From positions 1 to 25,082 of the forward strand of contig JAHLWH010000126.1 of NCBI GenBank assembly GCA_019058015.1: a stretch of 25,082 nucleotides of DNA, in the 5' to 3' direction. Every line of letters begins with the position of its first letter. Position 1 is the stretch's first letter. Below the pieces are notes generated by a model. That model worked only from the letters and a program-made list of their open reading frames with translations. It made no database searches and was not told the origin of the DNA. Position numbers and translations under genes: made by a program. The DNA comes from Promethearchaeota archaeon (GTDB taxonomy: Archaea > Asgardarchaeota > Lokiarchaeia > Sigyniarchaeales > SOKP01). Of the stretch, positions 2,446-24,961 are shown piece by piece.

Positions 2446-3531
2446 GTGGCGTATTATATTGCAACTTTACCTGTAACAATTATTTTTATAGTAAATGGTT
2501 TTGGGCAATTATTTTATGCCTTAAAATTAAATAAACAATTTCCAAAGGAACATAATTTTAAGAATTTTTATTTTATTTTTCTACTATGGATAACTGCAGC
2601 GTTATGTTATCCGTTCTTTTATTCAACGGATAATGTAAATATTAGATGGTTTCAGGGATTATCAAATTTTTTCATTTGTATTTTCACGCCGTCTATTATA
2701 TTTTTGATACTTCTATATCAATATGTAGCTGTTGTAAAAAAAAATCCAAATATAAAAGAAAAGAGAAATATTAAAAGGTTTATTGAAGAATTCGATAAAA
2801 AGATCGAAGATATCGATGATTTAGAATCATATGACCTCAATACAGATTTACACAGAAAAGCGCTTCATCTTTTTCCAGCAGGAATTATTGTTTTATTATG
2901 GATATTTGCTATTTATATATGGGAAGGCATATGGCATGCAGATCAGGTATGGGGGATAAGTGGGGGGGATTTTGGTGTTTTTTTAATATTGACAGTAGGA
3001 TATTCAGGTATTCTGTTATTTGCCGGTTTAGATTATGTTCGATTATCGTTTATTTTTAAGAATTCAAATATTTATCATCTATTACCGAATAATGTTCTTA
3101 ACCTTCTAAATAAGACAATGAAAAGAAATGAATTATTTGAGTTTATTAGACCGGCATCATTGGTTTTAGCGTTCATACCGAGTTTTTTTTTACCATTTAG
3201 TGTTTTTATTTCTATTGCGTTAATAGCAACTTTAGCAGATGGAGCTGCTTCTATTTTTGGAAAAAGATTTGGAAGTAGACATTTCCCTAAACGCAGTTTA
3301 AAAACAATAATTGGTTATATTAGTGGATTTACTGTCGCTTTCTTAATAGGGATTGTTTGTCTTTTAATTTTTGAAGAAAATTTAAATTTTTCAGAAATAA
3401 TTATTATATCATTAGCAGGAGCAATTGTCTTTTTTTTGATTGATATATTAAATCTAGATATTGATGATAACATATTAAATCCATTGTTTTGTGCTTTGGT
3501 TATGGGATATCTATATCTCTTATTCGCTTGA
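2446..3531 (+). CDS. Membrane CTP-dependent polyprenol/diacylglycerol kinase (dolichol/phytol kinase, SEC59/DGK1-like family)
   Basis: Multiple TM helices; DLHRKALH, ADGAASIFGKRFG, KTIIG and IDDN motifs; extra N-terminal TM region; GTG start. Confidence 0.8.
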   Translation: MAYYIATLPVTIIFIVNGFGQLFYALKLNKQFPKEHNFKNFYFIFLLWITAALCYPFFYSTDNVNIRWFQGLSNFFICIFTPSIIFLILLYQYVAVVKKNPNIKEKRNIKRFIEEFDKKIEDIDDLESYDLNTDLHRKALHLFPAGIIVLLWIFAIYIWEGIWHADQVWGISGGDFGVFLILTVGYSGILLFAGLDYVRLSFIFKNSNIYHLLPNNVLNLLNKTMKRNELFEFIRPASLVLAFIPSFFLPFSVFISIALIATLADGAASIFGKRFGSRHFPKRSLKTIIGYISGFTVAFLIGIVCLLIFEENLNFSEIIIISLAGAIVFFLIDILNLDIDDNILNPLFCALVMGYLYLLFA

Positions 3532-3626
3532 GATTTAAAATCGAATTTAAGAAAATAGAATAAAATCTTTATATTATCGAAATTTATAAACTTTTAATAA
3601 GGAAAATGTATTAAATCTAAAGATTT

Positions 3627-3697
3627 GCGCTCGTGGTATAGTGGTAGAACTCAGGCTTCCCAAGCCTGAGACCCGGGTTCGATTCCCGGCGGGCGCA
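3627..3697 (+). tRNA. tRNA-Gly (anticodon CCC), intronless, CCA not encoded
   Basis: Acceptor stem GCGCTCG/CGGGCGC, anticodon arm CAGGC-TTCCCAA-GCCTG, T arm CCGGG-TTCGATT-CCCGG, discriminator A3697, T-run downstream. Confidence 0.96.
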
Positions 3698-3752
3698 TTA
3701 AATTTTTTTCCCACTGAAATAAAATTGTACAAATTGAATTTCTAAGAATATT

Positions 3753-4882: not shown

Positions 4883-5347
4883 TCAGTCTATATCAACGGC
4901 AGCTTTACATTTATTACAGTGTTTTGCTCCTCTAAATAATGAGTTCCCGCAATTTGGACAGTGATATCTTTTTTCTATTTCCTCAACCCATTTTTCCGTA
5001 CCAAGCTTCCTCCATGCTGGGATGTCTTGGAGTATGACTTTTTTACCAACAGGAATTGGAAATCTTTCTATCATCTCACATGGAAATTCATCACATTGAT
5101 GACATCCCTCGATCTCTTTCTCCTTTGAGCAGCTTTTAATGGGACATGTTTTACAGAATTTGAATATAATCCCATCTGAAAGACAACCCGTACATTGAAT
5201 ATCTTCCACCTTTTTTGCAAATGGGCCAGAGACTTTCAATAATGCTTGTTTGAACTTTGGATTATTGTCTCTGTAAGCAATATAAATAGCACATACACCG
5301 CAATACAAACCACAAGGCGCTAAGAGTTCCTTTTTTATTCTTGCCAT
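4883..5347 (-). CDS. Cys-rich DUF3795-family protein with C-terminal double CxxC zinc ribbon
   Basis: APCGLYCGVC, CTGC, FCKTCPIKSC, GCHQCDEFPC pattern; CPNCG...CNKC tail. Confidence 0.8.
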   Translation of the reverse strand: MARIKKELLAPCGLYCGVCAIYIAYRDNNPKFKQALLKVSGPFAKKVEDIQCTGCLSDGIIFKFCKTCPIKSCSKEKEIEGCHQCDEFPCEMIERFPIPVGKKVILQDIPAWRKLGTEKWVEEIEKRYHCPNCGNSLFRGAKHCNKCKAAVDID

Positions 5348-7707: not shown

Positions 7708-9897
7708 TTACCAAGATATTCCTTTTCTAAACTTTATATCTGAAATAATTGAGTCCATTAATTCTTTTGGAACGGGTTGAAATGAGTGAAAAATGTTTTG
7801 CCAAAATGCTCGACCTGAGGATTTGTTTCTTATATCTTCGGCAAAATCCATGGCGTATCTAACTGGCATAAAAAAATCAATTAATGTTTGATATTCATTA
7901 TCTTGAAAAACTTTATTAACTTTTAATTGATATTTAGCCAATAGATTTAATGCTTTTTTTATCAATTCTGGAGGAAGTTGGATAGTTGTTTGATAAATCG
8001 GTTCAAGTAAAACTAATTGGGCATCATTTAAACATTGCTTAATAGCATCATATAGCATAGTAGTCAATTCTGAAATTGAACTATCTTCTTCTTTCGATGA
8101 AATGTTAATAGCTTCTATTACAATTTTTATTTCTGTAAGAACCTCACCACAGAGGGGTCCATTTAAACAGATTTTATTAATAATATCAATGATTTTATTC
8201 TTATCTTTATCATTTAAGATGATATCCTTAATATCCAACGGAGTATTGATTAAAATATTTAAGTTTTCATCACAATTGAGAAATCCTTCAATTTCTTTTG
8301 ATGATAAATTAGTTTTCTCTTTTAAGAATTCTTTTAATTTATTTAATGGCTTAATAGTTTTATGTTCACCAGATCTAAAGAATTGAAGTGTTTTTTGATC
8401 TAAGCGTTTGATTTTGATTTGTATTGAATTTTTCCCATTTGGTGAAATGGTTGAAATTGATGATGATTTGCTAAGGCAGGATTCCTTAAAAACACTACGT
8501 GGCTTAGACATATCAACCCTAATACCTCTCTTTTTCATTTCATTTACACTAACTTCTAAATGTAATGGTCCCATTCCAGAAAGCAATAATTCACCAGTTT
8601 CTAGACTTTCAGTATAACGCAAATTTGGGTCTTCGATAAGTAAATCTTCGATATGATTTTTTAATAGTTCCAAATCCTTGAGATATTCGGGTTCCACTGA
8701 TACAGTAATAACTGGTGTAGTAATGTATTTCACATCTTCAAATGCAATCATATGATCAGAGAATTTTGTCTCGATTAGTGTTTCTCCACTTTTTATATTC
8801 TTTAAACCTCCAATTGCAGCAATATTTCCAACAGGTATCTCTTCTACTTGGTCTCTTCTTGCTCCCATGAATAATGCAACAGATTGGATAATCTGTTCAT
8901 TATTTTCTCTTAAAAGAAATATGGGAGTTTTAGTTCTTAATACACCAGAAAATATTCTTCCTGTTCCAATTAGTCTACCTTTATCATTTATAACTTTACT
9001 AAGGCAAATTATTAATGGCCCATTTGGATCACATTCTATCATAGCCTTCCCGATTTCTGAGGTGATATCTCCTTCCCAAATTTTTTTGATTCGATACTTT
9101 TGTGCTTCTTTAGGATTTGGAATGTGATCTATAACCATTTCTAATATTGCTTCATGGATTGGATTTAAAACGGCTAGTGATTCAAAACTATTATTAAGAT
9201 ATTTATTTCGTAGGTCTTCAAAAGATATTTTATTTTTCTCAAATATAGACAATGTAAAGCCCCATTTATGCAGAGCCGAACCGAATGCAACTGTTCCTGC
9301 TGCAGGAGAAACTTTCCATTCATCTTTAAATTCCGAATCTGCATATCTTTCAATTAATTTGTTAAAATCGTTTATTATTCGAGAAATTTTTTTCCTAATT
9401 TCTTTAGGCTTTAATTTTAATTCTCTAAATAATCGATCTAACTTATTAATGAATAGAACAGGCTTGACGCCTTCTTGTAATGCTTGTTTAATTACCGTTT
9501 CTGATTGTGTTATAATTTCTTCTACTGCATCAACTATAACAATTACTCCGTCAATCAATCTTAGGGCTCTTGTAACTTTACCGCTAAAATCTAAATGTCC
9601 CGGAGTATCAACTAAATTTATTAAAAATTCTTCGTTTCTACCTAATACTTTCTCATAATATAAAGAGATATTAGTTGATTTCATAGTGATACCACGCCTT
9701 TGTTCTTCTTCTAAGTAATCTAAAACTCTCGCTTCTCCTGCTAGGTCAGGTGAGAGTAATCCAGCTTCACTCAAAAGTGAATCAGATAACGTTGTCTTAC
9801 CATGGTCAATATGGCCAACAAGACCGATATTTCGAATATTTTCTATTCTATGCATGAGTTTTAAAATTTCAACAGTTTCCTTAGTTCTTCTAGGCAT
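7708..9897 (-). CDS. Archaeal elongation factor 2 paralog (aEF-2p-like translational GTPase) lacking the diphthamide HRG loop
   Basis: G1 GHIDHGKT, G2 RGIT, G3 DTPGH, G4 NKLD, G5 GSALH; domain III EDP...GMGPLHLEV; domain V LLEPIY...IRNKSSGRAFW. Domain IV is divergent, with ISSKEEDSSISEL where canonical aEF-2 has LHEDxxHRGPAQ. Confidence 0.88.
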   Translation of the reverse strand: MPRRTKETVEILKLMHRIENIRNIGLVGHIDHGKTTLSDSLLSEAGLLSPDLAGEARVLDYLEEEQRRGITMKSTNISLYYEKVLGRNEEFLINLVDTPGHLDFSGKVTRALRLIDGVIVIVDAVEEIITQSETVIKQALQEGVKPVLFINKLDRLFRELKLKPKEIRKKISRIINDFNKLIERYADSEFKDEWKVSPAAGTVAFGSALHKWGFTLSIFEKNKISFEDLRNKYLNNSFESLAVLNPIHEAILEMVIDHIPNPKEAQKYRIKKIWEGDITSEIGKAMIECDPNGPLIICLSKVINDKGRLIGTGRIFSGVLRTKTPIFLLRENNEQIIQSVALFMGARRDQVEEIPVGNIAAIGGLKNIKSGETLIETKFSDHMIAFEDVKYITTPVITVSVEPEYLKDLELLKNHIEDLLIEDPNLRYTESLETGELLLSGMGPLHLEVSVNEMKKRGIRVDMSKPRSVFKESCLSKSSSISTISPNGKNSIQIKIKRLDQKTLQFFRSGEHKTIKPLNKLKEFLKEKTNLSSKEIEGFLNCDENLNILINTPLDIKDIILNDKDKNKIIDIINKICLNGPLCGEVLTEIKIVIEAINISSKEEDSSISELTTMLYDAIKQCLNDAQLVLLEPIYQTTIQLPPELIKKALNLLAKYQLKVNKVFQDNEYQTLIDFFMPVRYAMDFAEDIRNKSSGRAFWQNIFHSFQPVPKELMDSIISDIKFRKGISW

Positions 9898-11372: not shown

Positions 11373-12161
11373 ATGATCCATAGCATGCTCCAAATATTTA
11401 TTTTGAACGTTCAATTGGAGTTCATATCGTTTTTCATATTTATTGCACTATTGGCGGGAGAATTTTTAATTCTTTTTATATATTATGTTAAAGGAGGATT
11501 TCAAAAAGAAAATACAAAATCTGGCCTAAATTTTTTAATTTTGGTTTTTTATTTTATCTATTTTGGTCTAAGTTTCGTAAATCTATTTATTTTTATAATA
11601 TCATTTAGTATTTTATTTTATTGGACCACTTATATTTATGCAAAATCCGAATTTTCAAATAAAAACGATGGTTTATTGCAAATTAATTGGTATTGGTTTT
11701 TGGTTTTCTTTTATATGCTTCATTTTTATTTTAAAATTTTTAATTCTAATACTCCTAATGAACTTATATTCTCTTCAATTATTCGAATGATGTTTGTATT
11801 ATGGCTATATTATTGGTTTAATCGTTATTTATTTCATAAAAAAAGAGCAGTTTCTTTTAGAAACAAAGCTCGTGAAGAATTAGACAAAAAAAAATATGAA
11901 AAGGCATTAAATTTCCTTAAAGAAGCAGTTCAGGCTTCAAATAATATAATTGGCATAACAAAACTAGAAACTCAATTGGAGATAGAATTTAAAAATATGG
12001 AAACTACTATTAAAGAAGGTAATTTTAAAAATCTTGAAAACATATTACCTGAAACTATTAATCAGAAGACTCAAATTTTAGCATATTTTATTATTTGTTC
12101 TATCTTAACATTTTTAATAAGTTTTTTTCTAATTTTCAATTTTTACCTATATTTAAAATAA
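11373..12161 (+). CDS. Hypothetical membrane protein with a TPR-like helical insert before the last TM helix
   Basis: About 5 N-terminal hydrophobic helices, then AREELDKKKYEKALNFLKEAV (TPR-like), then a C-terminal TM helix. Confidence 0.65.
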   Translation: MIHSMLQIFILNVQLEFISFFIFIALLAGEFLILFIYYVKGGFQKENTKSGLNFLILVFYFIYFGLSFVNLFIFIISFSILFYWTTYIYAKSEFSNKNDGLLQINWYWFLVFFYMLHFYFKIFNSNTPNELIFSSIIRMMFVLWLYYWFNRYLFHKKRAVSFRNKAREELDKKKYEKALNFLKEAVQASNNIIGITKLETQLEIEFKNMETTIKEGNFKNLENILPETINQKTQILAYFIICSILTFLISFFLIFNFYLYLK

Positions 12162-12308: not shown

Positions 12309-13274
12309 CTACTTTTCAATTGACTTTTTTTTCATTTTAAGCCCTAAATAAAGTATTGATATCAATGAAACTATACCAATAATTCCAAATGGAAATCCGG
12401 GGATCTCTGACGTTGAAATATCTTGATAAACCTCGCTTGGATATATTGCATTTAGGGTATGTTTATATGTATTGCTAGTTATATCTTGTTCCTTAGTATT
12501 ATTATCAAATTCAGACAATGTCATGTTCATATCTAATGTAGCTAAGCGAAGTACGTTAGTATTTGCTCCATAATACACTTCTCCAGTCATTATTAATGTT
12601 GAATTGGTCCAAGCATTTGATTCTGTAGGATATGAACCAAGCAATTCGATTTGGACACCTAGTGTTACTAAATAATTTATGCTACGTGTTGTTTTTGAGA
12701 TAACTTCAGTACTATTAGAAAAGGTTTCAATATCACCTGTTTGTTTATCAATTGACAATAAATTTCCGAAAACCCAAAAAAAAATAGCAACAAGCATAAT
12801 TGGAGAATTAACAAATACCAAGGGAACATATTCATTATCAAGGCTAGCCAGAGAAGCATCTTTTGCATTCCAAAATCCTTGATAATGTGTTAAGATAGTA
12901 TCGTTTATAAAATAACTTGAGTTTGCTCCCCAAGCCGAAAACCCAGGACCATTTTGGTAATCTGGTGCTGGCGTCATATCACCATCTCGTTCGTAATATG
13001 CACCCGTTACATTCACTGCATTTCCAAAAAATGGATAATTTCCTATTTCTACAGATTCTGCCTTAAATCGAATATGTGATGTTCGTTTAGGAGTATCAAA
13101 AGAATCTCCCCACTGATCTATTCCATATTCATTAATCTTGCTTCTCCAAAGTACAACATTTTTCTCACCGCTTTTCCACCAAACATCGTTAATAGTGATA
13201 GCTGAAACAATAGGCATAAAATTCAGAAATATTAAAAAACAAATTGAAATAATTATTTTTTTTTTTTTAATCAC
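12309..13274 (-). CDS. Secreted/surface protein with C-terminal Loki-CTERM-like (PGF-type) sorting signal
   Basis: Signal peptide KKKKIIISICFLIFLNFMPIVSA; several N-x-S/T sequons (NVT, NSS, NDT, NST, NMT, NNT); C-terminal EIPGFP + TM helix + KMKKK. Confidence 0.8.
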   Translation of the reverse strand: MIKKKKIIISICFLIFLNFMPIVSAITINDVWWKSGEKNVVLWRSKINEYGIDQWGDSFDTPKRTSHIRFKAESVEIGNYPFFGNAVNVTGAYYERDGDMTPAPDYQNGPGFSAWGANSSYFINDTILTHYQGFWNAKDASLASLDNEYVPLVFVNSPIMLVAIFFWVFGNLLSIDKQTGDIETFSNSTEVISKTTRSINYLVTLGVQIELLGSYPTESNAWTNSTLIMTGEVYYGANTNVLRLATLDMNMTLSEFDNNTKEQDITSNTYKHTLNAIYPSEVYQDISTSEIPGFPFGIIGIVSLISILYLGLKMKKKSIEK

Positions 13275-14497: not shown

Positions 14498-16405
14498 ATG
14501 AGTTGCGAACGTGAATTAAACAGAATAAAAACTGAAATTAAAAAGTATCTTCCAGTAGAAATAAATATAAAGAAGATCGAGTTTGAGGGCCCTGAGATAG
14601 CGGTTTATTCTGAAAATCCTAAAGTTTTAATAGAAAAGGCTAATATTTTAAAAGATTTAGCAAAAAAAATGCGTAAAAGGATTGTTGTTAGGTGGGATTT
14701 TGAGAAGCGTAGAGATATAGCAGAAACCGAGAAGTACATTCAAGATTTAATTGGAGAGGATGCAGAAATTTCAAATATCGAATTTGACGCGAATAAAGGA
14801 GAAGTAATTATTGAATCTGTAAAACCAGGATTGGTTATTGGTAAAAAAGGAATTAATTTAACAGAGATAAGAAAAAATACATTTTGGCAACCAATAACTA
14901 TAAGAGCCCCACCTTTAGAATCAAAAACGATTAGATTAATTAGAGGTATGTTAAAGACGGAACGCGCCAAACAAAAGCAAATTCTTCTTAAAATTGGAAA
15001 GAGAATACATCGACCTACTCTATTTAACGATTTAAGAATACGGATGACTGCTTTAGGAGGTTTTAGAGAAGTTGGGAGATCATGTATTTTAATCCAAACA
15101 AATGATAGTAATTTATTATTAGATTGCGGAATAAATGTTGGAAGTAATAACAATCAATTTCCCTTTTTTGAGGTCCCACAATTTTTAATAAGAGATTTAG
15201 ATGCAGTTGTTCTAAGTCATGCCCATTTAGACCATTCTGGATTAGTTCCATTCCTTTATAAATATGGTTATCGCGGTCCACTTTATTGTACTCTTCCAAC
15301 ACGTAATTTATCAACAATGCTTCAATTGGATTACATTCAAATCGCTGAGAGAGAAGCTCGACCACCTCCCTATTCAAAAAGGGATGTAAAAACAACTGTA
15401 TTACATACAATTCCATTATCATTTGGAAAAGTTACAGACATCGCTCCAGATGTTAAATTAACATTGCATAATTCAGGACATATTCTTGGTGGATCAATTA
15501 TTCATTTGCATTTTGGAGATGGAGGGTATAATTTGGTTTATACTGGGGATTATAAATTTCAGAAAACAAGATTATTAGAACCCGCTTCTGTGAACTTTCC
15601 ACGAGTTGAATGTCTTTTGACCGAATCTACTTATGGAGGGGCACAAGATCGAATTCCAAGCCGTCATGAATCTGAAAAGGAACTTAGAAATGTAATTAAT
15701 GCTCATATAAGGAAAGGTGGAAAAATCTTAATTCCTGTTTTAGCAGTGGGACGAGCACAAGAATTAATCATTATTCTTGAAGAATTTATTTCTCACGGAT
15801 TAATTGATGAAGTTCCTATTTTTTTAGATGGATTAATCAGTGAAGCGACAGCTATACATACTGCTAATCCAGACTTTTTAAGTAGCGATTTAAGAGAAAA
15901 AATCCTTCATCAAGGGAAAAATCCTTTTTTAAGTGAATATTTCACAACTATAAATTCAAAAGATGAACGAAAGGATGTAATTAAAGGAGGTCCGTGCATT
16001 ATTTTAGCTACATCTGGAATGTTGATTGGTGGACCTTCATTAATATACTTAAAAGAATTAGCTAACGATTCGAAAAATGGATTGATATTTGTATCATATC
16101 AAGTTGAAGGAACATTAGGTCGCCGGATTCAAAAAGGATTTAAAGAATTTCAATATGAAGATACAAGAGGACGAACCCAACTTGTCAAAATAAATTTTAA
16201 CATCTATACAATTGAGGGTTTTTCAGGACACTCGAGTCGTAGCCAGATCTCCCAGTATATCCGTAAAATCAATCCATCTCCCCGGCTAATCATTGTGAAT
16301 CATGGAGAAGAATCAAAAACGGTGAGTCTTTCATCGTTGTTACATAAGAAGCTAAAGCGAACGACTAAAAGCCCTGCAAATATGGAAACACTTCGTCTAA
16401 AATAA
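14498..16405 (+). CDS. fttA: Beta-CASP ribonuclease aCPSF1 / transcription termination factor FttA
   Basis: Two N-terminal KH domains (FEGPEI, KPGLVIGKKG), GGFREVGRS, HAHLDH, SGHILG, YTGD, ESTYG, AVGRAQE, GFSGHS, NHGE; 635 aa. Confidence 0.95.
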   Translation: MSCERELNRIKTEIKKYLPVEINIKKIEFEGPEIAVYSENPKVLIEKANILKDLAKKMRKRIVVRWDFEKRRDIAETEKYIQDLIGEDAEISNIEFDANKGEVIIESVKPGLVIGKKGINLTEIRKNTFWQPITIRAPPLESKTIRLIRGMLKTERAKQKQILLKIGKRIHRPTLFNDLRIRMTALGGFREVGRSCILIQTNDSNLLLDCGINVGSNNNQFPFFEVPQFLIRDLDAVVLSHAHLDHSGLVPFLYKYGYRGPLYCTLPTRNLSTMLQLDYIQIAEREARPPPYSKRDVKTTVLHTIPLSFGKVTDIAPDVKLTLHNSGHILGGSIIHLHFGDGGYNLVYTGDYKFQKTRLLEPASVNFPRVECLLTESTYGGAQDRIPSRHESEKELRNVINAHIRKGGKILIPVLAVGRAQELIIILEEFISHGLIDEVPIFLDGLISEATAIHTANPDFLSSDLREKILHQGKNPFLSEYFTTINSKDERKDVIKGGPCIILATSGMLIGGPSLIYLKELANDSKNGLIFVSYQVEGTLGRRIQKGFKEFQYEDTRGRTQLVKINFNIYTIEGFSGHSSRSQISQYIRKINPSPRLIIVNHGEESKTVSLSSLLHKKLKRTTKSPANMETLRLK

Positions 16406-18877: not shown

Positions 18878-18950
18878 AGCTCCGTAGTGTAGTGGCCAAG
18901 CATTTGGGACTCTGAATCCTAGGACGGCGGTTCGAATCCGCCCGGAGCTA
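18878..18950 (+). tRNA. tRNA-Gln (anticodon CTG), intronless, CCA not encoded
   Basis: Acceptor stem AGCTCCG/CGGAGCT with the A1-U72 pair typical of archaeal tRNA-Gln; anticodon arm TGGGA-CTCTGAA-TCCTA; T arm GGCGG-TTCGAAT-CCGCC; T6 run downstream. Confidence 0.96.
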
Positions 18951-19063
18951 CTTTTTTGAATGGAATAACAATATTTATTAAAAATAGAAAAAATATATTA
19001 AAATAGAATAACCATTAATTTATTATAGGAAAATTTAAAAAACTATAAAACGAGAATATTCTA

Positions 19064-19480
19064 ATGCCAATAATTAGTTTTTCAATTAACGATCACTTGA
19101 AAAAATTTTTAAATAAATTAGTTACTAAAAAATATTATCCAAATCAGTCAAAAATTATAAGAGACGCACTTTTAAGGCTAATGTCAACAATGGAAATCTC
19201 AGAAATAGAAAGAGATGTAGAAATAAAAAAGATACAAAAGAACATAGTTGGAAACGCAATGATAGTGATAGAACATGATGATGATCTAGCAATTAAAAAA
19301 ATTTCCAAGCTAGAAACTGATTTTAAAGAATGTATCGCAGGTAAATCTCAATTCTTATACTCTAAATATAAAACAATATTATTTGTTTTTGAAGGTGAGA
19401 TAGATAGTTTTCATAGTTTTATTTCAGAATTAAATGCTATTGAAAATTTAAAGAATTTTCGATATATAATTATTAGTTAA
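19064..19480 (+). CDS. Ribbon-helix-helix (CopG/NikR-like) regulator with C-terminal ACT-like domain
   Basis: MPIISFSINDHLKKFLNKLV...YPNQSKIIRDAL is an RHH pattern; the C-terminal beta-alpha-beta-beta-alpha-beta layout and length resemble NikR. Confidence 0.75.
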   Translation: MPIISFSINDHLKKFLNKLVTKKYYPNQSKIIRDALLRLMSTMEISEIERDVEIKKIQKNIVGNAMIVIEHDDDLAIKKISKLETDFKECIAGKSQFLYSKYKTILFVFEGEIDSFHSFISELNAIENLKNFRYIIIS

Positions 19481-19495: not shown

Positions 19496-21862
19496 TTAGA
19501 GTTTTATTGCCCTTCCTATAACATTTTTAAAATTTTCTATATCATCGGCTAATTTTTCCGCATCATTTTCATTAATATTATCCTCTTTATTGTATTTATT
19601 TAAAGTCGTTAACCAAAACTCAATTCTATCCAAGACGGGGTGCGTCTCTCCCAAAATTTTTCTTACTCTCACAAATGTATCCTGAAGCTTGATACGGATA
19701 TTATTTGCCCGCCATTTTAACATACAATAATCAGAAATTTCCATTAAATTTTGAGTAATGACCATTATGTCAAGCGTTTTTTCACGCTCTTCAGATTTTA
19801 TTTTTCTGATAATATTTATTTGCTCAAATAAGATTTCAATAATTTTTGCTAACCAACCAGTTAATTGCCCGGGATTTCCGCACCAAACTCTTAATTCTAA
19901 TGATTGATTTTTAGAATTAATAAATATTCTAGTAATTATTCTCCCGCCGGTTACTTTTGCTTCAGCACAATACCATGCTTCAGCTTGGTAATTATCATCT
20001 TGACCTTCTTCATGAGAAGTAACAATGGTAGTTTCAAAACTTTTTAGAGTTCTTTGGGCAGCTCTGAAAGCCAACCGAGGATCGAGATCGGCAATCATAA
20101 ATGCTCTTGCATCACTCGGTAGGTCTTGAATCGCTAATTGGCAATCTTCCACATTGTCGAGAGTAGCGATGACTAATGGACATTTTATTTGCACTTCTTT
20201 TCTCTTGAGATATATGGTTTTTTTTTCACCTTTTGGAGATTTATAGATAACTGTCCCACCGATTGAAGATATTCCACATTGGCGGGGTTCTAGATAAAAA
20301 TCTACTCCTCTTGAGTTATTAGGTTCAATTACAGGAATTGAAATTATTTCTTGTTTTAGATTATAACTAGAAGGGGCATCAAGTATAATCTTAATAGAGT
20401 GAATTGCCACATCATTATGATTTCGAACTACTACTTTAAAGTGTAATTGACCCCCTTGAAAATCATATTCTCTAAGAACTTCAACTTTCTCGGATAACTT
20501 TAAGTCATCAGTTGGAATCTCATCTAATCTAATTGAATATTCAGATGTGATGGGAGCTACTCTCTCTAGAATGAACATTTTATGTAAAGAATCAATATAT
20601 CCTTCAATGGAGCCCCGTGATATCAGAATTGCTAATTTTTCCTCAATATTTGACTCAGTTATTCCTAAACGTCTCGCTAATTCTGTTAATGAAATTTTCC
20701 TATATACTTTAGTTATTTCTTTAATTTTTATTTCTAAGTATTTTTGAGTCATAAATTCTCTTCTTTGAGTAAATACACCCTTAAGTTCACCACTTTGTAT
20801 AAGATTAAACAAAGTTCTGCGACTTAATTCAACAGCAATTTTGAGATCTCCTGAAATTTTGTTAAGTTTAAAGATACCCTTGTCTTTCGCATATTTCTTT
20901 ATTTCGCTATTTAACTGCTTTTGGGTGATTATTTCCTTTCCTTTATCTGCAAAAAAAGCAATTACCTTTTCTAATTTCATTAGATTTACACAAAAATTTT
21001 TAATATTTTCTGAGTGTAAATCTAATTCTTCACTAAGTTTTTTTATTAAAATTCTGCCCTTTAAATTAATAATTTCCATTAATTTATCAAAAATATATTG
21101 TTTAGTATAATATTTCTGCTTACTTATCGTAAAAGAACCTTTAATTTTATATTCCTTAATCAATTTTAAGATCAATTTTATAGTATTATCAGAACTCATA
21201 TCTAACATTGAAGATAGATTTTGATTTTCAATAATTCCCTCTTCTTCAATTTTTGAAATAATTTTTTGTTTGATTTCTGATGAGATATAATAAAATAAAT
21301 TATGAACCTTATCGATAACTCCATAAACTTTATTTTCATTAATATAGTTTTTAATTATTCCAACAATCTCGTCTGAACTAACGTTAAACATTGTTGATAA
21401 CGTAGTAAAATTGGTAATTGAGGAACCTTTTAATACTGCTAAAAGACATTTGGGGCATACTTCCTTACCTTCGAATTTTCTTAATTTTTTATTGCATACT
21501 TCATCAAATCTTATTATACCAAGTCTTTTTGCATCTCTAAGAACTCTTTCTTTATAAGGATAAAATATTCCAGGAGATTTTAAATACGAATTCCATCCAC
21601 ATTTTTTATCAGTGCATTTTAAATAGAATTGACCAGATGATAATTTATCTAACTGTACAAGCGATTTACATTCAGGACATGAGCTTCTTTCTATTATGGA
21701 ACAACGATATCTTAGAACTCTAGCATTAACTCTTGAATAATATATATTATGATCCTTACAATACCATTTCTCTGTACTAATTACATGGTTTATGCAAAAG
21801 GAAGCCCCACACTTCTCACAAGTAAATACTACGTTTTCATCTTCACAAAATTCGCATTTCAT
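19496..21862 (-). CDS. Multidomain protein: Zn-finger region + five tandem winged-helix (PCI/UFL1-like) repeats + Ig-like/platform module + helical tail
   Basis: 16 Cys/His candidate ligands in aa 1-140; ~59-aa repeats over aa 138-433, the last a classic PCI-type WH (YRKISLTELARRLGITESNIEEKLAILISRGSIEGYID); beta-sandwich aa ~458-563; alpha/beta domain aa ~580-685. Confidence 0.75.
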   Translation of the reverse strand: MKCEFCEDENVVFTCEKCGASFCINHVISTEKWYCKDHNIYYSRVNARVLRYRCSIIERSSCPECKSLVQLDKLSSGQFYLKCTDKKCGWNSYLKSPGIFYPYKERVLRDAKRLGIIRFDEVCNKKLRKFEGKEVCPKCLLAVLKGSSITNFTTLSTMFNVSSDEIVGIIKNYINENKVYGVIDKVHNLFYYISSEIKQKIISKIEEEGIIENQNLSSMLDMSSDNTIKLILKLIKEYKIKGSFTISKQKYYTKQYIFDKLMEIINLKGRILIKKLSEELDLHSENIKNFCVNLMKLEKVIAFFADKGKEIITQKQLNSEIKKYAKDKGIFKLNKISGDLKIAVELSRRTLFNLIQSGELKGVFTQRREFMTQKYLEIKIKEITKVYRKISLTELARRLGITESNIEEKLAILISRGSIEGYIDSLHKMFILERVAPITSEYSIRLDEIPTDDLKLSEKVEVLREYDFQGGQLHFKVVVRNHNDVAIHSIKIILDAPSSYNLKQEIISIPVIEPNNSRGVDFYLEPRQCGISSIGGTVIYKSPKGEKKTIYLKRKEVQIKCPLVIATLDNVEDCQLAIQDLPSDARAFMIADLDPRLAFRAAQRTLKSFETTIVTSHEEGQDDNYQAEAWYCAEAKVTGGRIITRIFINSKNQSLELRVWCGNPGQLTGWLAKIIEILFEQINIIRKIKSEEREKTLDIMVITQNLMEISDYCMLKWRANNIRIKLQDTFVRVRKILGETHPVLDRIEFWLTTLNKYNKEDNINENDAEKLADDIENFKNVIGRAIKL

Positions 21863-21988: not shown

Positions 21989-22681
21989 CTAAATCGATGG
22001 AAAAATATCAATTCGAAATATTGAAACCCCTAATATCACAATATTAAAAAAAATTATCAAAACAATCATTATTAGAGAAACTTTACTGGATCTTTCTGTT
22101 TTTGTTTTTCTTCTTTTTGAACCAAATTCGCTTATAATTGCTAACGGAAACAATCCAAGAAATGTGCCTACAGAAAATGATAGGATGGTTAATAATCCAC
22201 TTATTAAGCCGTAGCTTAAAGTCCAAGTAAAACATTGAGTATAAATTAATATCTCAAAAATACATGGTGGAAGACCTGCTAAAATCCCAAAGACATAAGG
22301 TGTTCTTTTTCTATTCCAATCAATGTCCATCTTTAATTCATCAGCATATTTAGAATGAGGGGCATAACGATGAGTAATAATAAAAATTAACATATAAACT
22401 GATACTATACAGCTAATCAATGCGCCAAAAAAATTATTAACATAGTTTTCTGTAGGAATAAATGTAAAAATTAAACTAAATAATGAAGTTAATATGCCAA
22501 TTGTGCAATTTGCAATCATTAGCCCAATACCGTATCTCATTAATATTAATATACTATTTTTCCAATCTTTACCTATGCCAAATGACCAAAAACAAAAAAT
22601 TGCTTTATCTTCACATGGCATAATTGTATGTAATATACCTATAGCAAAAGCTGGCCATAATACAAGTAATTGATCTAGAAT
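21989..22681 (-). CDS. Multi-TM membrane protein resembling RcnA/UreH-type Ni/Co transporters or DsbD-like proteins; probable start ATT at 22681 (first ATG 22621)
   Basis: The frame is open upstream of ATG 22621, giving ILDQLLVLWPAFAIGILHTIMPCEDK, which resembles the TM1 GxLHAxxPGHxK motif. A second motif GLPPC lies in a later helix. Confidence 0.6.
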   Translation of the reverse strand: MLDQLLVLWPAFAIGILHTIMPCEDKAIFCFWSFGIGKDWKNSILILMRYGIGLMIANCTIGILTSLFSLIFTFIPTENYVNNFFGALISCIVSVYMLIFIITHRYAPHSKYADELKMDIDWNRKRTPYVFGILAGLPPCIFEILIYTQCFTWTLSYGLISGLLTILSFSVGTFLGLFPLAIISEFGSKRRKTKTERSSKVSLIMIVLIIFFNIVILGVSIFRIDIFPSI

Positions 22682-24553: not shown

Positions 24554-24961
24554 TTAAAGACTATTTAACGATTTTTCCTTATCTAAATTTTCTTGTTTTT
24601 GAAAAAAAGCTCTACTTAAAACATCAAATTCATCATCAGATAATAGTTCCTTACATTTTTCTGTTAATATTTTTGTATTTTTAAAAACTAAACTTATTTT
24701 CTCACAAATATAAGAAGAACATTTTCCACAATTTTCAATTTTTTTTTCTGAGCAACATTTTTTCACATCCAAATTTGCACATTCTTTTGAAAAATGACAT
24801 CCATAGCAAATTAAGGATTCTGGTTCTTCTAATGTATCTCGAAATCCCAGTTTTTTCCATAATATGGCTACTTCTTTTAATTCATCCTTATCTCCTCTTA
24901 CAGTTGCGATATAACGTGGACAAAAATCGCAATTATCTCCACAACAACCTAATTTAACCAT
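24554..24961 (-). CDS. Cys-rich DUF3795-family protein
   Basis: GCCGDNCDFCPRY, CYGC, C...VKKCC, IENCGKCSSYIC pattern. Confidence 0.8.
   Translation of the reverse strand: MVKLGCCGDNCDFCPRYIATVRGDKDELKEVAILWKKLGFRDTLEEPESLICYGCHFSKECANLDVKKCCSEKKIENCGKCSSYICEKISLVFKNTKILTEKCKELLSDDEFDVLSRAFFQKQENLDKEKSLNSL

Follow-up and report, generated by a model that had tools for sequence, protein, structure and literature searches.

A zinc module, a DDRGK1-UFL1-like row of winged helices, an adaptin-type appendage and a Vps28-type bundle predicted in a single Lokiarchaeial protein

A preprint describes exactly the fusion of zinc, UFL1-like, Adaptin-C and Vps28-C parts that is the subject of this work (Liu et al., 2020; bioRxiv 10.1101/2020.10.19.343400), and the same fusion is annotated as asCOG cog.003822/003834 among the multidomain proteins related to ESCRT, the endosomal sorting complexes that are required for transport, in Table S2 of Makarova et al. 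(2024), where the annotation phrase has 58 occurrences and where the entry of Lokiarchaeum GC14_75 is followed by NikR-like and parvulin genes. Multidomain proteins bearing Vps28-C were proposed to dock on ESCRT-II and to be analogues of ESCRT-0 (Makarova et al., 2024), and yeast two-hybrid contacts have been reported for Loki and Heimdall ESCRT-I (Vps28 and/or Vps23) with Vps22 (Hatano et al., 2022). An Asgard origin of UFL1 and DDRGK1 has also been stated in print. Here, a gene of this type is analysed in a stretch of 25,082 nucleotides (hereafter the window) from Promethearchaeota archaeon (assembly GCA_019058015.1, contig JAHLWH010000126.1; Lokiarchaeia; Sigyniarchaeales; SOKP01), in which a single open reading frame (ORF) of 788 codons plus stop occupies positions 19496..21862 of the minus strand.

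The 788-residue product has the same four-part architecture, Lokiarchaeial host range and downstream NikR-like/parvulin gene order as cog.003822/003834 and, matched by these traits, it is an orthologue of that family. A first-pass annotation of this DNA had taken the architecture for an undescribed one, a claim overturned by the preprint and by Table S2; in fact, the architecture, its restriction to Asgard archaea and the ESCRT-linked hypothesis have all been published previously. An experimental study of this protein was not found in the literature, the supplements of the papers aside. The points not found in print are the confinement of the full fusion to one order, the presence of its zinc and five-winged-helix half without the C-terminal cassette in sister orders, the position of the DDRGK1/UFL1 boundary, which lies in one chain and within a winged helix that is intact, and the relationship of platform and bundle with Sel_Asgard. 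For the single chain and its fission, no statement was found in the literature, including the available text of PMC10183829, its appendix figures and the preprint supplements aside. The analysis is therefore a confirmation with added detail and not a discovery, since the architecture is in print, the function is only inferred and the full fusion does not extend beyond a single order of Lokiarchaeia.

Modules of the 788-residue protein

The 788-residue ORF is a real gene under purifying selection. The dN/dS ratio of the whole gene is 0.157 and 0.197 against its two closest orthologues (93-94% identical), and against the same two it stays below 0.55 in each segment, the linker included. Among 8000 candidates scored in a word-indexed search, 321 proteins matched the query with an expectation value (E) of at most 1e-3, and the best 120 of these 321 relatives are 771-797 residues long, with an identity of 56-94% and a query coverage of 98-100%; an exhaustive HMMER search over cluster representatives returned 532 proteins at E<=1e-3, 177 at E<=1e-10 and 27 at E<=1e-30. 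The N-terminus can be considered as fixed because C3 and C6 are invariant. No hydrophobic or transmembrane segment is present in the protein (the highest Kyte-Doolittle mean over 19 residues is 1.22), and no catalytic domain was found in it by Pfam or NCBIfam scans. The gene is single-copy: a profile of the C-terminal cassette run over the 5923 ORFs of its own genome gave a full-length match to this protein alone, in addition to two weak matches limited to the Ig part. A scan for promoters and terminators of bacterial type found 32 promoter-like sites against 27.3 expected and no terminators, a result which is uninformative for an archaeon.

From a structural perspective, the full-length AlphaFold2 model, built from 63 sequences, has a mean predicted local distance difference test value (pLDDT) of 84.1 and a predicted template modelling score (pTM) of 0.43. 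It contains a beta-rich Cys/His region at residues 1-136, then five successive helix-strand-helix-helix-hairpin units, an eight-strand sandwich at 460-559, an alpha/beta platform at 571-660 and a five-helix tail at 664-786. Between the last of the five units and the sandwich lies a linker (residues 433-458; 20489..20566, minus strand) that has a pLDDT below 50 over residues 434-456 and a mean identity to orthologues of 0.09, the segments outside it having 0.43-0.70. Residues 455-788, modelled separately, gave a confident structure (pLDDT 93.7, pTM 0.74), and two rigid halves on a flexible tether would fit the low pTM of the whole chain. As far as the models go, it is thus nearly certain that the protein is made of a zinc module, five winged helices, a flexible linker, an appendage and a bundle of the Vps28 C-terminal (Vps28-C) type. 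The appendage and the bundle form the C-terminal cassette, the best conserved part of the protein, with identities of 0.67-0.70 as compared with 0.43-0.49 in the first three winged helices.

The winged-helix arm (residues 137-432; 20567..21454, minus strand) is a homologue of the DDRGK1-UFL1 platform found in the UFM1 E3 ligase of eukaryotes and runs collinear with it, a C-terminal part of DDRGK1 being followed by an N-terminal part of UFL1. Its units are WH1 (137-192), WH2 (195-253), WH3 (254-313), WH4 (314-372) and WH5 (373-432). The Pfam profile DDRGK matches residues 136-217 (E 7.3e-11; profile positions 100-180 of 188), E3_UFM1_ligase matches residues 214-431 (E 1.4e-12; 13-233 of 272) and PCI matches residues 377-433 (E 3.7e-16; 27-83 of 84), and a phmmer search of the PDB places residues 144-304 in one collinear alignment to the DDRGK1-UFL1 chimera 8b9x (E 2.8e-4). 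The structural searches agree with these results. Foldseek retrieves 8b9x_A (E 9.8e-12, template modelling score 0.69 on the target) and the 60S-bound UFL1 8qfc_B (E 8.6e-9); VIA-align superposes the model on the human chimera 8b9x_B with a Z score of 15.3, a root-mean-square deviation (rmsd) of 3.9 and 243 of 255 residues aligned; and a second 60S-bound UFL1, 8ohd_A, is matched with Z 13.0 over 207 residues, model residues 224-433 corresponding to UFL1 29-247. WH5 superposes on the PCI winged helix from a subunit of the COP9 signalosome (9qo3_D) with an rmsd of 1.0 over 63 residues and 24% identity, and another PCI winged helix of this complex, 9efq_B, gives Z 13.2. The arm is mildly basic, with a net charge of +15 across WH1-5.

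The point of passage from the DDRGK1-like to the UFL1-like part can be located within this alignment. UFL1 residue 29 corresponds to residue 224 and the DDRGK profile stops at residue 217, and because both positions are within WH2, the boundary falls inside an intact winged helix, which we take to be the unit assembled in eukaryotes from a partial winged helix of each of DDRGK1 and UFL1. The residues preceding the UFL1-aligned start belong to WH1 and WH2, and nothing in the protein is aligned to UFL1 1-28, the segment that presumably corresponds to the UFC1-binding helix.

The distribution of the UFM1-related profiles was followed in a sample of 400 genomes of the phylum. E3_UFM1_ligase matches occur in 141 of the 400, the strongest being orthologues of the 788-residue protein (E 1e-13 to 1e-20), and those in other classes of the phylum have E values of 1e-6 to 1e-8. 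The Pfam profile of Ufm1 (PF03671) has no match at E<=1 in the window's own genome (94.4% complete) and none at E<=0.001 in the 400 genomes, and that of UFC1 (PF08694) has none at E<=0.01 in the own genome, in a search whose control matched 0 of its 14 genomes. The Ufm1 blanks carry little weight, because the profile finds nothing in the whole phylum although Ufm1 homologues have been reported from structure in nine Asgard clades (Koestlbacher et al., 2026; PMC12962969).

The zinc module (residues 1-136; 21455..21862, minus strand) is defined by 16 Cys/His ligands that are invariant or at least 90% conserved over 63 aligned sequences. C3, C6, C15, C18, C23, H26, C35 and H38 show the spacing of a two-zinc cross-brace finger, C62, C65, C83 and C88 that of a zinc ribbon, and the four further conserved cysteines C54, C123, C136 and C139 may together form one further site. 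Judging from this ligand pattern, metal binding at about four zinc sites is predicted. The spacing is retained in the distant homologues P0129, P0134 and P0137, which are only 27-31% identical. When residues 1-50 are scanned alone, Pfam gives sub-threshold matches to zf-AN1 (E 7.5e-4, 20 bits against a cut-off of 27.9) and to an ANCHR-like B-box (E 9.8e-4), and an Atlas look-up of residues 1-136 reached a best score of 0.79, below the meaningful level.

The appendage is composed of an Ig-like beta sandwich (residues 459-560; 20183..20488, minus strand; mean identity 0.67), recognized in the models, and an alpha/beta platform (residues 561-662; 19877..20182, minus strand). The platform matches that of the AP-4 beta appendage, 2mj7, with Z 14.0, an rmsd of 2.6 and 119 residues aligned (Z 12.1 with the full model). 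Sandwich and platform together match the beta2-adaptin ear 3h1z (Z 13.3, 200 aligned), the alpha ear 1w80 (Z 12.7, 199 aligned) and gamma-COP 1r4x (Z 11.0, 209 aligned). Furthermore, the first 17 Foldseek matches listed for the C-terminal model are all COPI or adaptin entries, aligned over about 240 columns, among them 9qpq_H of the COPI leaf (E 3.1e-11) and 1e42_A (E 1.7e-9). Only the pair of sandwich and platform is diagnostic, because the sandwich alone also matches many unrelated Ig and MG domains at Z 10-13. The angle at the hinge between the two subdomains differs from that of the adaptin and COPI ears, as the alignments including both subdomains have an rmsd of 12-14 A. An invariant cluster of charged and aromatic residues is found in the platform: D584, R586, F588, D592, R604, E628, R641, E656, R658 and W660.

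A separate observation concerns two cysteines of the appendage. C529-G530 and K560-C561-P562-L563 are at least 90% conserved over 53 cassette-bearing proteins of very different architecture, and C561 is located in a loop (561-567) that is poorly modelled in the full-length model. The two cysteines might coordinate a metal, act as a redox pair or mark a point of contact.

The helical tail (residues 663-788; 19499..19876, minus strand) has the highest mean identity to orthologues of all segments (0.70) and consists of one long helix and then a four-helix bundle of Vps28-C type (approximately 694-786). The Pfam profile VPS28 matches residues 689-778 (E 1.6e-5, 25.2 bits against a cut-off of 24.5; profile positions 88-180 of 188), and the C-terminal domain of yeast Vps28, 2j9u_A, is aligned over 93 of 94 residues with Z 12.8 and an rmsd of 2.1. 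Values of Z below about 13 are common among helical bundles, according to the warning of the alignment tool. The Vps28-C assignment is moderately secure and rests on sequence and fold jointly, because the fold alone is unspecific, as matches to CheA P1 bundles demonstrate. A BLASTP comparison of the C-terminal part with the Vps28 of the own genome gave no significant pairwise match, the likeness being visible by profiles only. This complete Vps28 (215 residues) is itself encoded in a cluster (L036:6181-10608) with SecY, an EMC3/TMCO1-like membrane protein, L14e, L34e and cytidylate kinase, on a contig other than that of the Vps22, Vps25 and Vps4 genes.

Platform and bundle resemble a second family. 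Residues 592-784 cover nearly the whole 195-position model of NCBIfam Sel_Asgard (NF045535, 'putative selenocysteine system protein'); the score, 46.4-51 bits, is under the 132-bit cut-off, and the protein is not a member of the family. The true member in the own genome is a 230-residue ORF scoring 183.6 bits (L040:1483-2172, minus strand), directly downstream of SepSecS (L040:2255-3436, minus strand; Pfam E 2.9e-116), with which the C-terminal part of the 788-residue protein has no significant BLASTP match, so that here too the relationship is visible by profile only. As an observation in its own right, this archaeon thus seems to have a module of appendage-platform/Vps28-C-like type in association with its selenocysteine genes.

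The reading of the chain made in the first-pass annotation is largely borne out by these data. Zinc fingers, winged helices, an Ig/platform module and a helical tail do occur together in the AlphaFold models, and the count of five winged helices was correct. The winged helices are of UFL1/DDRGK1/PCI type, as had been suggested, and not generic DNA-binding helix-turn-helix (HTH) units, on which Pfam, the PDB sequence search, Foldseek and VIA-align agree; what comes after the Ig domain is a genuine appendage platform, to judge from the 2mj7 match and the COPI/adaptin Foldseek results. The tail was correctly described as helical (664-786), and what had escaped notice is its Vps28-C character, seen with Pfam VPS28 and 2j9u_A. 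The link to Ubl modification or to quality control at the ribosome that the same annotation put forward finds neither support nor contradiction in the data.

Distribution and gene neighbourhood

In the phylum sample, 148 of the 400 genomes have matches at E<=1e-20 when the own genome is included. With the own genome left out of this and the next counts, full-length orthologues are found in 139 of the 153 genomes of a single order, made up of the families f1 (122/134, the family of the window), f2 (1/1), f3 (12/14, three closed genomes among them) and f4 (4/4). In f1, the window's genus aside, they share 55-60% identity, as compared with 43-46% in f3 and 39-42% in f4, and the window's genus itself is on a long branch, being about 57% identical to the other genera of its family. 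In the other orders of the same class, all seven genomes sampled match at E 1e-35 to 1e-58 only, and a match is present in 1 of the remaining 239 genomes. The proteins of these sister orders (L132-L134; P0134, P0137) are about 725 residues long and align to residues 2-450 (E 1e-44 to 1e-56); they share the zinc-ligand pattern and the five winged helices, while further winged helices replace the appendage and the bundle. The C-terminal part, too, occurs elsewhere: residues 456-680, accompanied by the bundle or not, are found after quite other N-termini (among them double zinc ribbons, ABC_transp_aux/DUF4350-like regions and FG-GAP repeats) in many proteins, which reach 2311 residues in length. 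Since the two halves occur apart, the 788-residue protein can be described as an order-specific fusion of two modules that are widely reused in Asgard archaea.

A scan of one genome per bacterial or archaeal species yielded 136 stretches with a relative. Among the best 80 of the 136, from which the labels were taken, 79 have archaeal labels (54 Promethearchaeota/Promethearchaeia, 13 'uncultured archaeon', 4 Hodarchaeota, 5 Hermodarchaeota, 2 Thorarchaeota and 1 Odinarchaeota) and one is titled 'Nanopelagicaceae bacterium' (L082). A FastTree phylogeny was built from 77 of the loci L052-L130 plus the window, L109 and L110 being left out for their ORFs of less than 700 residues and L131 not being included. 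The sequence under the actinobacterial family title is a full-length orthologue that nests among Lokiarchaeial ones on a branch of 0.018, and its label is likely an error of binning or labelling. The architecture is not widespread in non-Asgard prokaryotes, as 79 of the best 80 are archaeal and the lone 'bacterium' nests in this way. The sequences labelled Hod-, Hermod-, Thor- and Odinarchaeota also nest at short distances among those labelled Promethearchaeota, so that the odd phylum labels are taken as unreliable. An Asgard-wide family, suggested by the Thor-, Odin-, Hod-, Hermod- and Heimdallarchaeota labels given by submitters to orthologues of 56-58% identity, was considered and rejected, full-length matches being confined to one order in the phylum sample.

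Regarding the genomic context, a gene for a DsbD_2-type membrane protein (21989-22621, minus strand) is located upstream of the gene on the same strand, and a ribbon-helix-helix/NikR-like gene (19064-19480, plus strand) is downstream and convergent. No E1, E2 or ubiquitin-like protein (Ubl) gene is adjacent, as had been noted from the bare sequence and as the annotation of the neighbours in the window verifies. The neighbourhood was compared over 21 loci, i.e., the window and 20 others (16 from f1, 5 from f3/f4). The DsbD_2-like gene is directly upstream, and the NikR-like gene directly downstream, in 15 of the 16 f1 loci each, and a parvulin gene then follows in 10 of the 16; none of the three arrangements is found in the five f3/f4 loci. 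The NikR-like gene has the same direction as the target in 13 of these f1 loci; it is turned round in two, the window and its closest relative (L013). In three f3 loci (L028-L030), a proteasome subunit gene, an unannotated gene of 247 residues and a UPF0179 gene lie near the orthologue on the opposite strand, with an AsnC-type gene upstream. The conserved gene order gives no functional message because the synteny is at the level of the family only.

The rest of the window contains tRNA gene calls for tRNA-Gln(CTG) (18878-18951) and tRNA-Gly(CCC) (3626-3698), and genes for a radical-SAM protein with an HMPTM-type N-terminal zinc ribbon (355-2124), elongation factor 2 (7708-9897, minus strand), the termination/cleavage factor FttA (14498-16405) and two DUF3795 paralogues (4883-5347 and 24554-24961). 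Three ORFs are without a Pfam match at E<=0.001 (2446-3531, 11373-12161 and 12309-13274, of 361, 262 and 321 residues, respectively), and the other neighbours are a GT87-like glycosyltransferase, an HD-domain protein, an Fe-S protein and a formyltransferase.

Candidate functions and origin of the scaffold

The explanation that we tentatively favour, by analogy with described systems and somewhat short of an even chance, is that the protein would be a soluble, non-catalytic, modular scaffold or adaptor linking clients to the Asgard ESCRT/membrane-remodelling machinery. The C-terminal cassette, being strongly conserved, would be the constant docking end, in which the four-helix bundle might bind a component of ESCRT-II or ESCRT-III, as Vps28-C does, and the platform, in the manner of adaptin ears, might recognize short linear motifs. 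The zinc/winged-helix arm would carry the client, for which a protein, with or without a modification, and a ribonucleoprotein are both conceivable. Clients would in this manner be brought to the ESCRT machinery as by an ESCRT-0/I-like adaptor, in the sense of Makarova et al. (2024). Docking on ESCRT-II/III is suggested by the published proposal for Vps28-C and by the two-hybrid contacts of Asgard ESCRT-I with Vps22. The reuse of the cassette behind different N-termini and the lack of transmembrane and catalytic parts also count for an adaptor, as do the genes of the presumed partners in the own genome, namely Vps22/EAP30 (L037:1456-2169, minus strand) and Vps25 (L037:570-1451) beside a Vps4 fragment, and the separate full Vps28. 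Several observations weigh against this explanation: ESCRT, ubiquitin, Ubl and trafficking genes are all missing beside the target in the window and the 20 related loci, and the gene order is conserved inside one family only (f1); the VPS28 Pfam match is marginal, and CheA P1 bundles reach Z 12.0 as compared with 12.8 for Vps28, four-helix bundles being common; finally, platform and bundle score higher against Sel_Asgard than against VPS28, and the true Sel_Asgard member adjoins SepSecS and not ESCRT genes.

This last point leads to a different explanation, in which platform and bundle may be a general interaction unit, given the position of the Sel_Asgard relative beside SepSecS, and in which the whole protein would serve as scaffold in some complex specific to Asgard archaea, with no relation to ESCRT or to ribosomes, its winged helices and cassette being modules for protein-protein interaction in the way that PCI winged helices are in lid-like assemblies. 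We consider it unlikely, even if it would accommodate the homology of platform and bundle with Sel_Asgard, the closeness of WH5 to the PCI winged helices of the COP9 signalosome (9qo3_D, 9efq_B and Pfam PCI), the zinc and five-winged-helix half without the cassette in the sister orders, the cassette behind many other N-termini, and the lack of a functional neighbourhood conserved beyond one family. The neighbourhoods offer no candidate set of partners for such a complex, the Vps28 and adaptin similarities are those that published analyses tie to ESCRT, and the explanation is hard to tell from that of an ESCRT adaptor. Improbable too is a ribosome- or translocon-associated scaffold like UFL1-DDRGK1, operating with or without an Asgard Ufm1-like modifier, in which the winged-helix arm would sit on the large ribosomal subunit and the appendage/bundle end would recruit quality-control factors. 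The match of the arm to 60S-bound UFL1 (8qfc_B, 8ohd_A), the coverage of DDRGK1-like and UFL1-like parts in one chain, the Asgard Ufm1 homologues (PMC12962969) and the basic charge of the arm speak for it. Nevertheless, the UFL1 alignment starts only at UFL1 residue 29, neither the UFL1 C-terminal domain nor a membrane anchor is present, nothing translational is adjacent except the tRNA-Gln gene about 550 bases away, and the Pfam blanks for Ufm1 and UFC1 in the own genome are a further, weak, argument against it, the former profile being silent phylum-wide and the control of the latter having failed. A DNA-binding transcription regulator with zinc ribbons and winged HTH units would fit the automatic name of several orthologues ('DNA-binding Lrp family transcriptional regulator'), the adjacent ribbon-helix-helix regulator gene, a PDB sequence match to LrpA 1i1g (E 0.0041), and weak HTH matches of WH5 to FeoC (1.7e-4) and to HTH_10, HTH_24 and AsnC-type profiles (all above 0.01). 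It is nonetheless very unlikely, as these HTH matches are all under the Pfam cut-offs apart from the marginal FeoC, the strongest matches in sequence and structure are protein-scaffolding winged helices (DDRGK1-UFL1 and PCI), and no regulator offers a precedent for five units collinear with UFL1 that are joined to a bundle of Vps28 type and a coat appendage.

In an archaeal relative of the ancestor of eukaryotes, the protein joins pieces of three eukaryotic systems, namely the UFM1 E3 scaffold, the coat-adaptor ears and ESCRT-I, and its partners would reveal the role of these modules before eukaryotes. It is conceivable, if doubtful, that eukaryotes obtained the two proteins of their UFM1 E3 scaffold through the fission of such a single-chain gene within a winged helix, and that the role preceding UFM1 was to couple a client, perhaps the ribosome, with a docking end of appendage/Vps28 type and so with membrane remodelling. 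The occurrence of the fusion in Lokiarchaeia only counts against this origin, Lokiarchaeia not being the Asgard lineage usually placed nearest to eukaryotes. The single-chain DDRGK1-UFL1-like arm provides a concrete model for the way in which a two-protein scaffold with a composite winged helix could have originated.

Comparison with PCI proteins, coat adaptors, ESCRT-I and UFL1-DDRGK1

The individual modules resemble known systems to different extents. The winged-helix subdomain typical of PCI domain proteins (proteasome lid, COP9 signalosome, eIF3) is present as WH5. By definition, a PCI domain has a helical-repeat subdomain ahead of its winged helix; in the Lokiarchaeial model, by contrast, WH5 is preceded by the winged helix WH4 and no helical repeats are seen. 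As in the ears of AP-2 alpha and beta2, AP-4 beta and COPI beta and gamma, a beta sandwich is followed by an alpha/beta platform behind a flexible linker. Unlike adaptins and COPI subunits, the Lokiarchaeial protein has no alpha-solenoid trunk according to Pfam and the model, and the identity is 9-14%. In comparison with Vps28 of ESCRT-I, the tail is devoid of the Vps28 N-terminal core, whereas the full Vps28 of the own genome matches profile positions 2-188.

The most extensive likeness is that with UFL1-DDRGK1, with which the protein shares a row of winged helices and a resemblance in sequence to the two Pfam profiles, DDRGK coming before UFL1. DDRGK1 is membrane-anchored; the Lokiarchaeial protein has no such anchor and bears a zinc module in front of the row. 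The UFL1 C-terminal domain is absent, residues 459-788 forming instead the appendage and the four-helix bundle. Finally, what is divided over two proteins in the eukaryotic scaffold is a single chain here, with the composite unit, WH2, intact.

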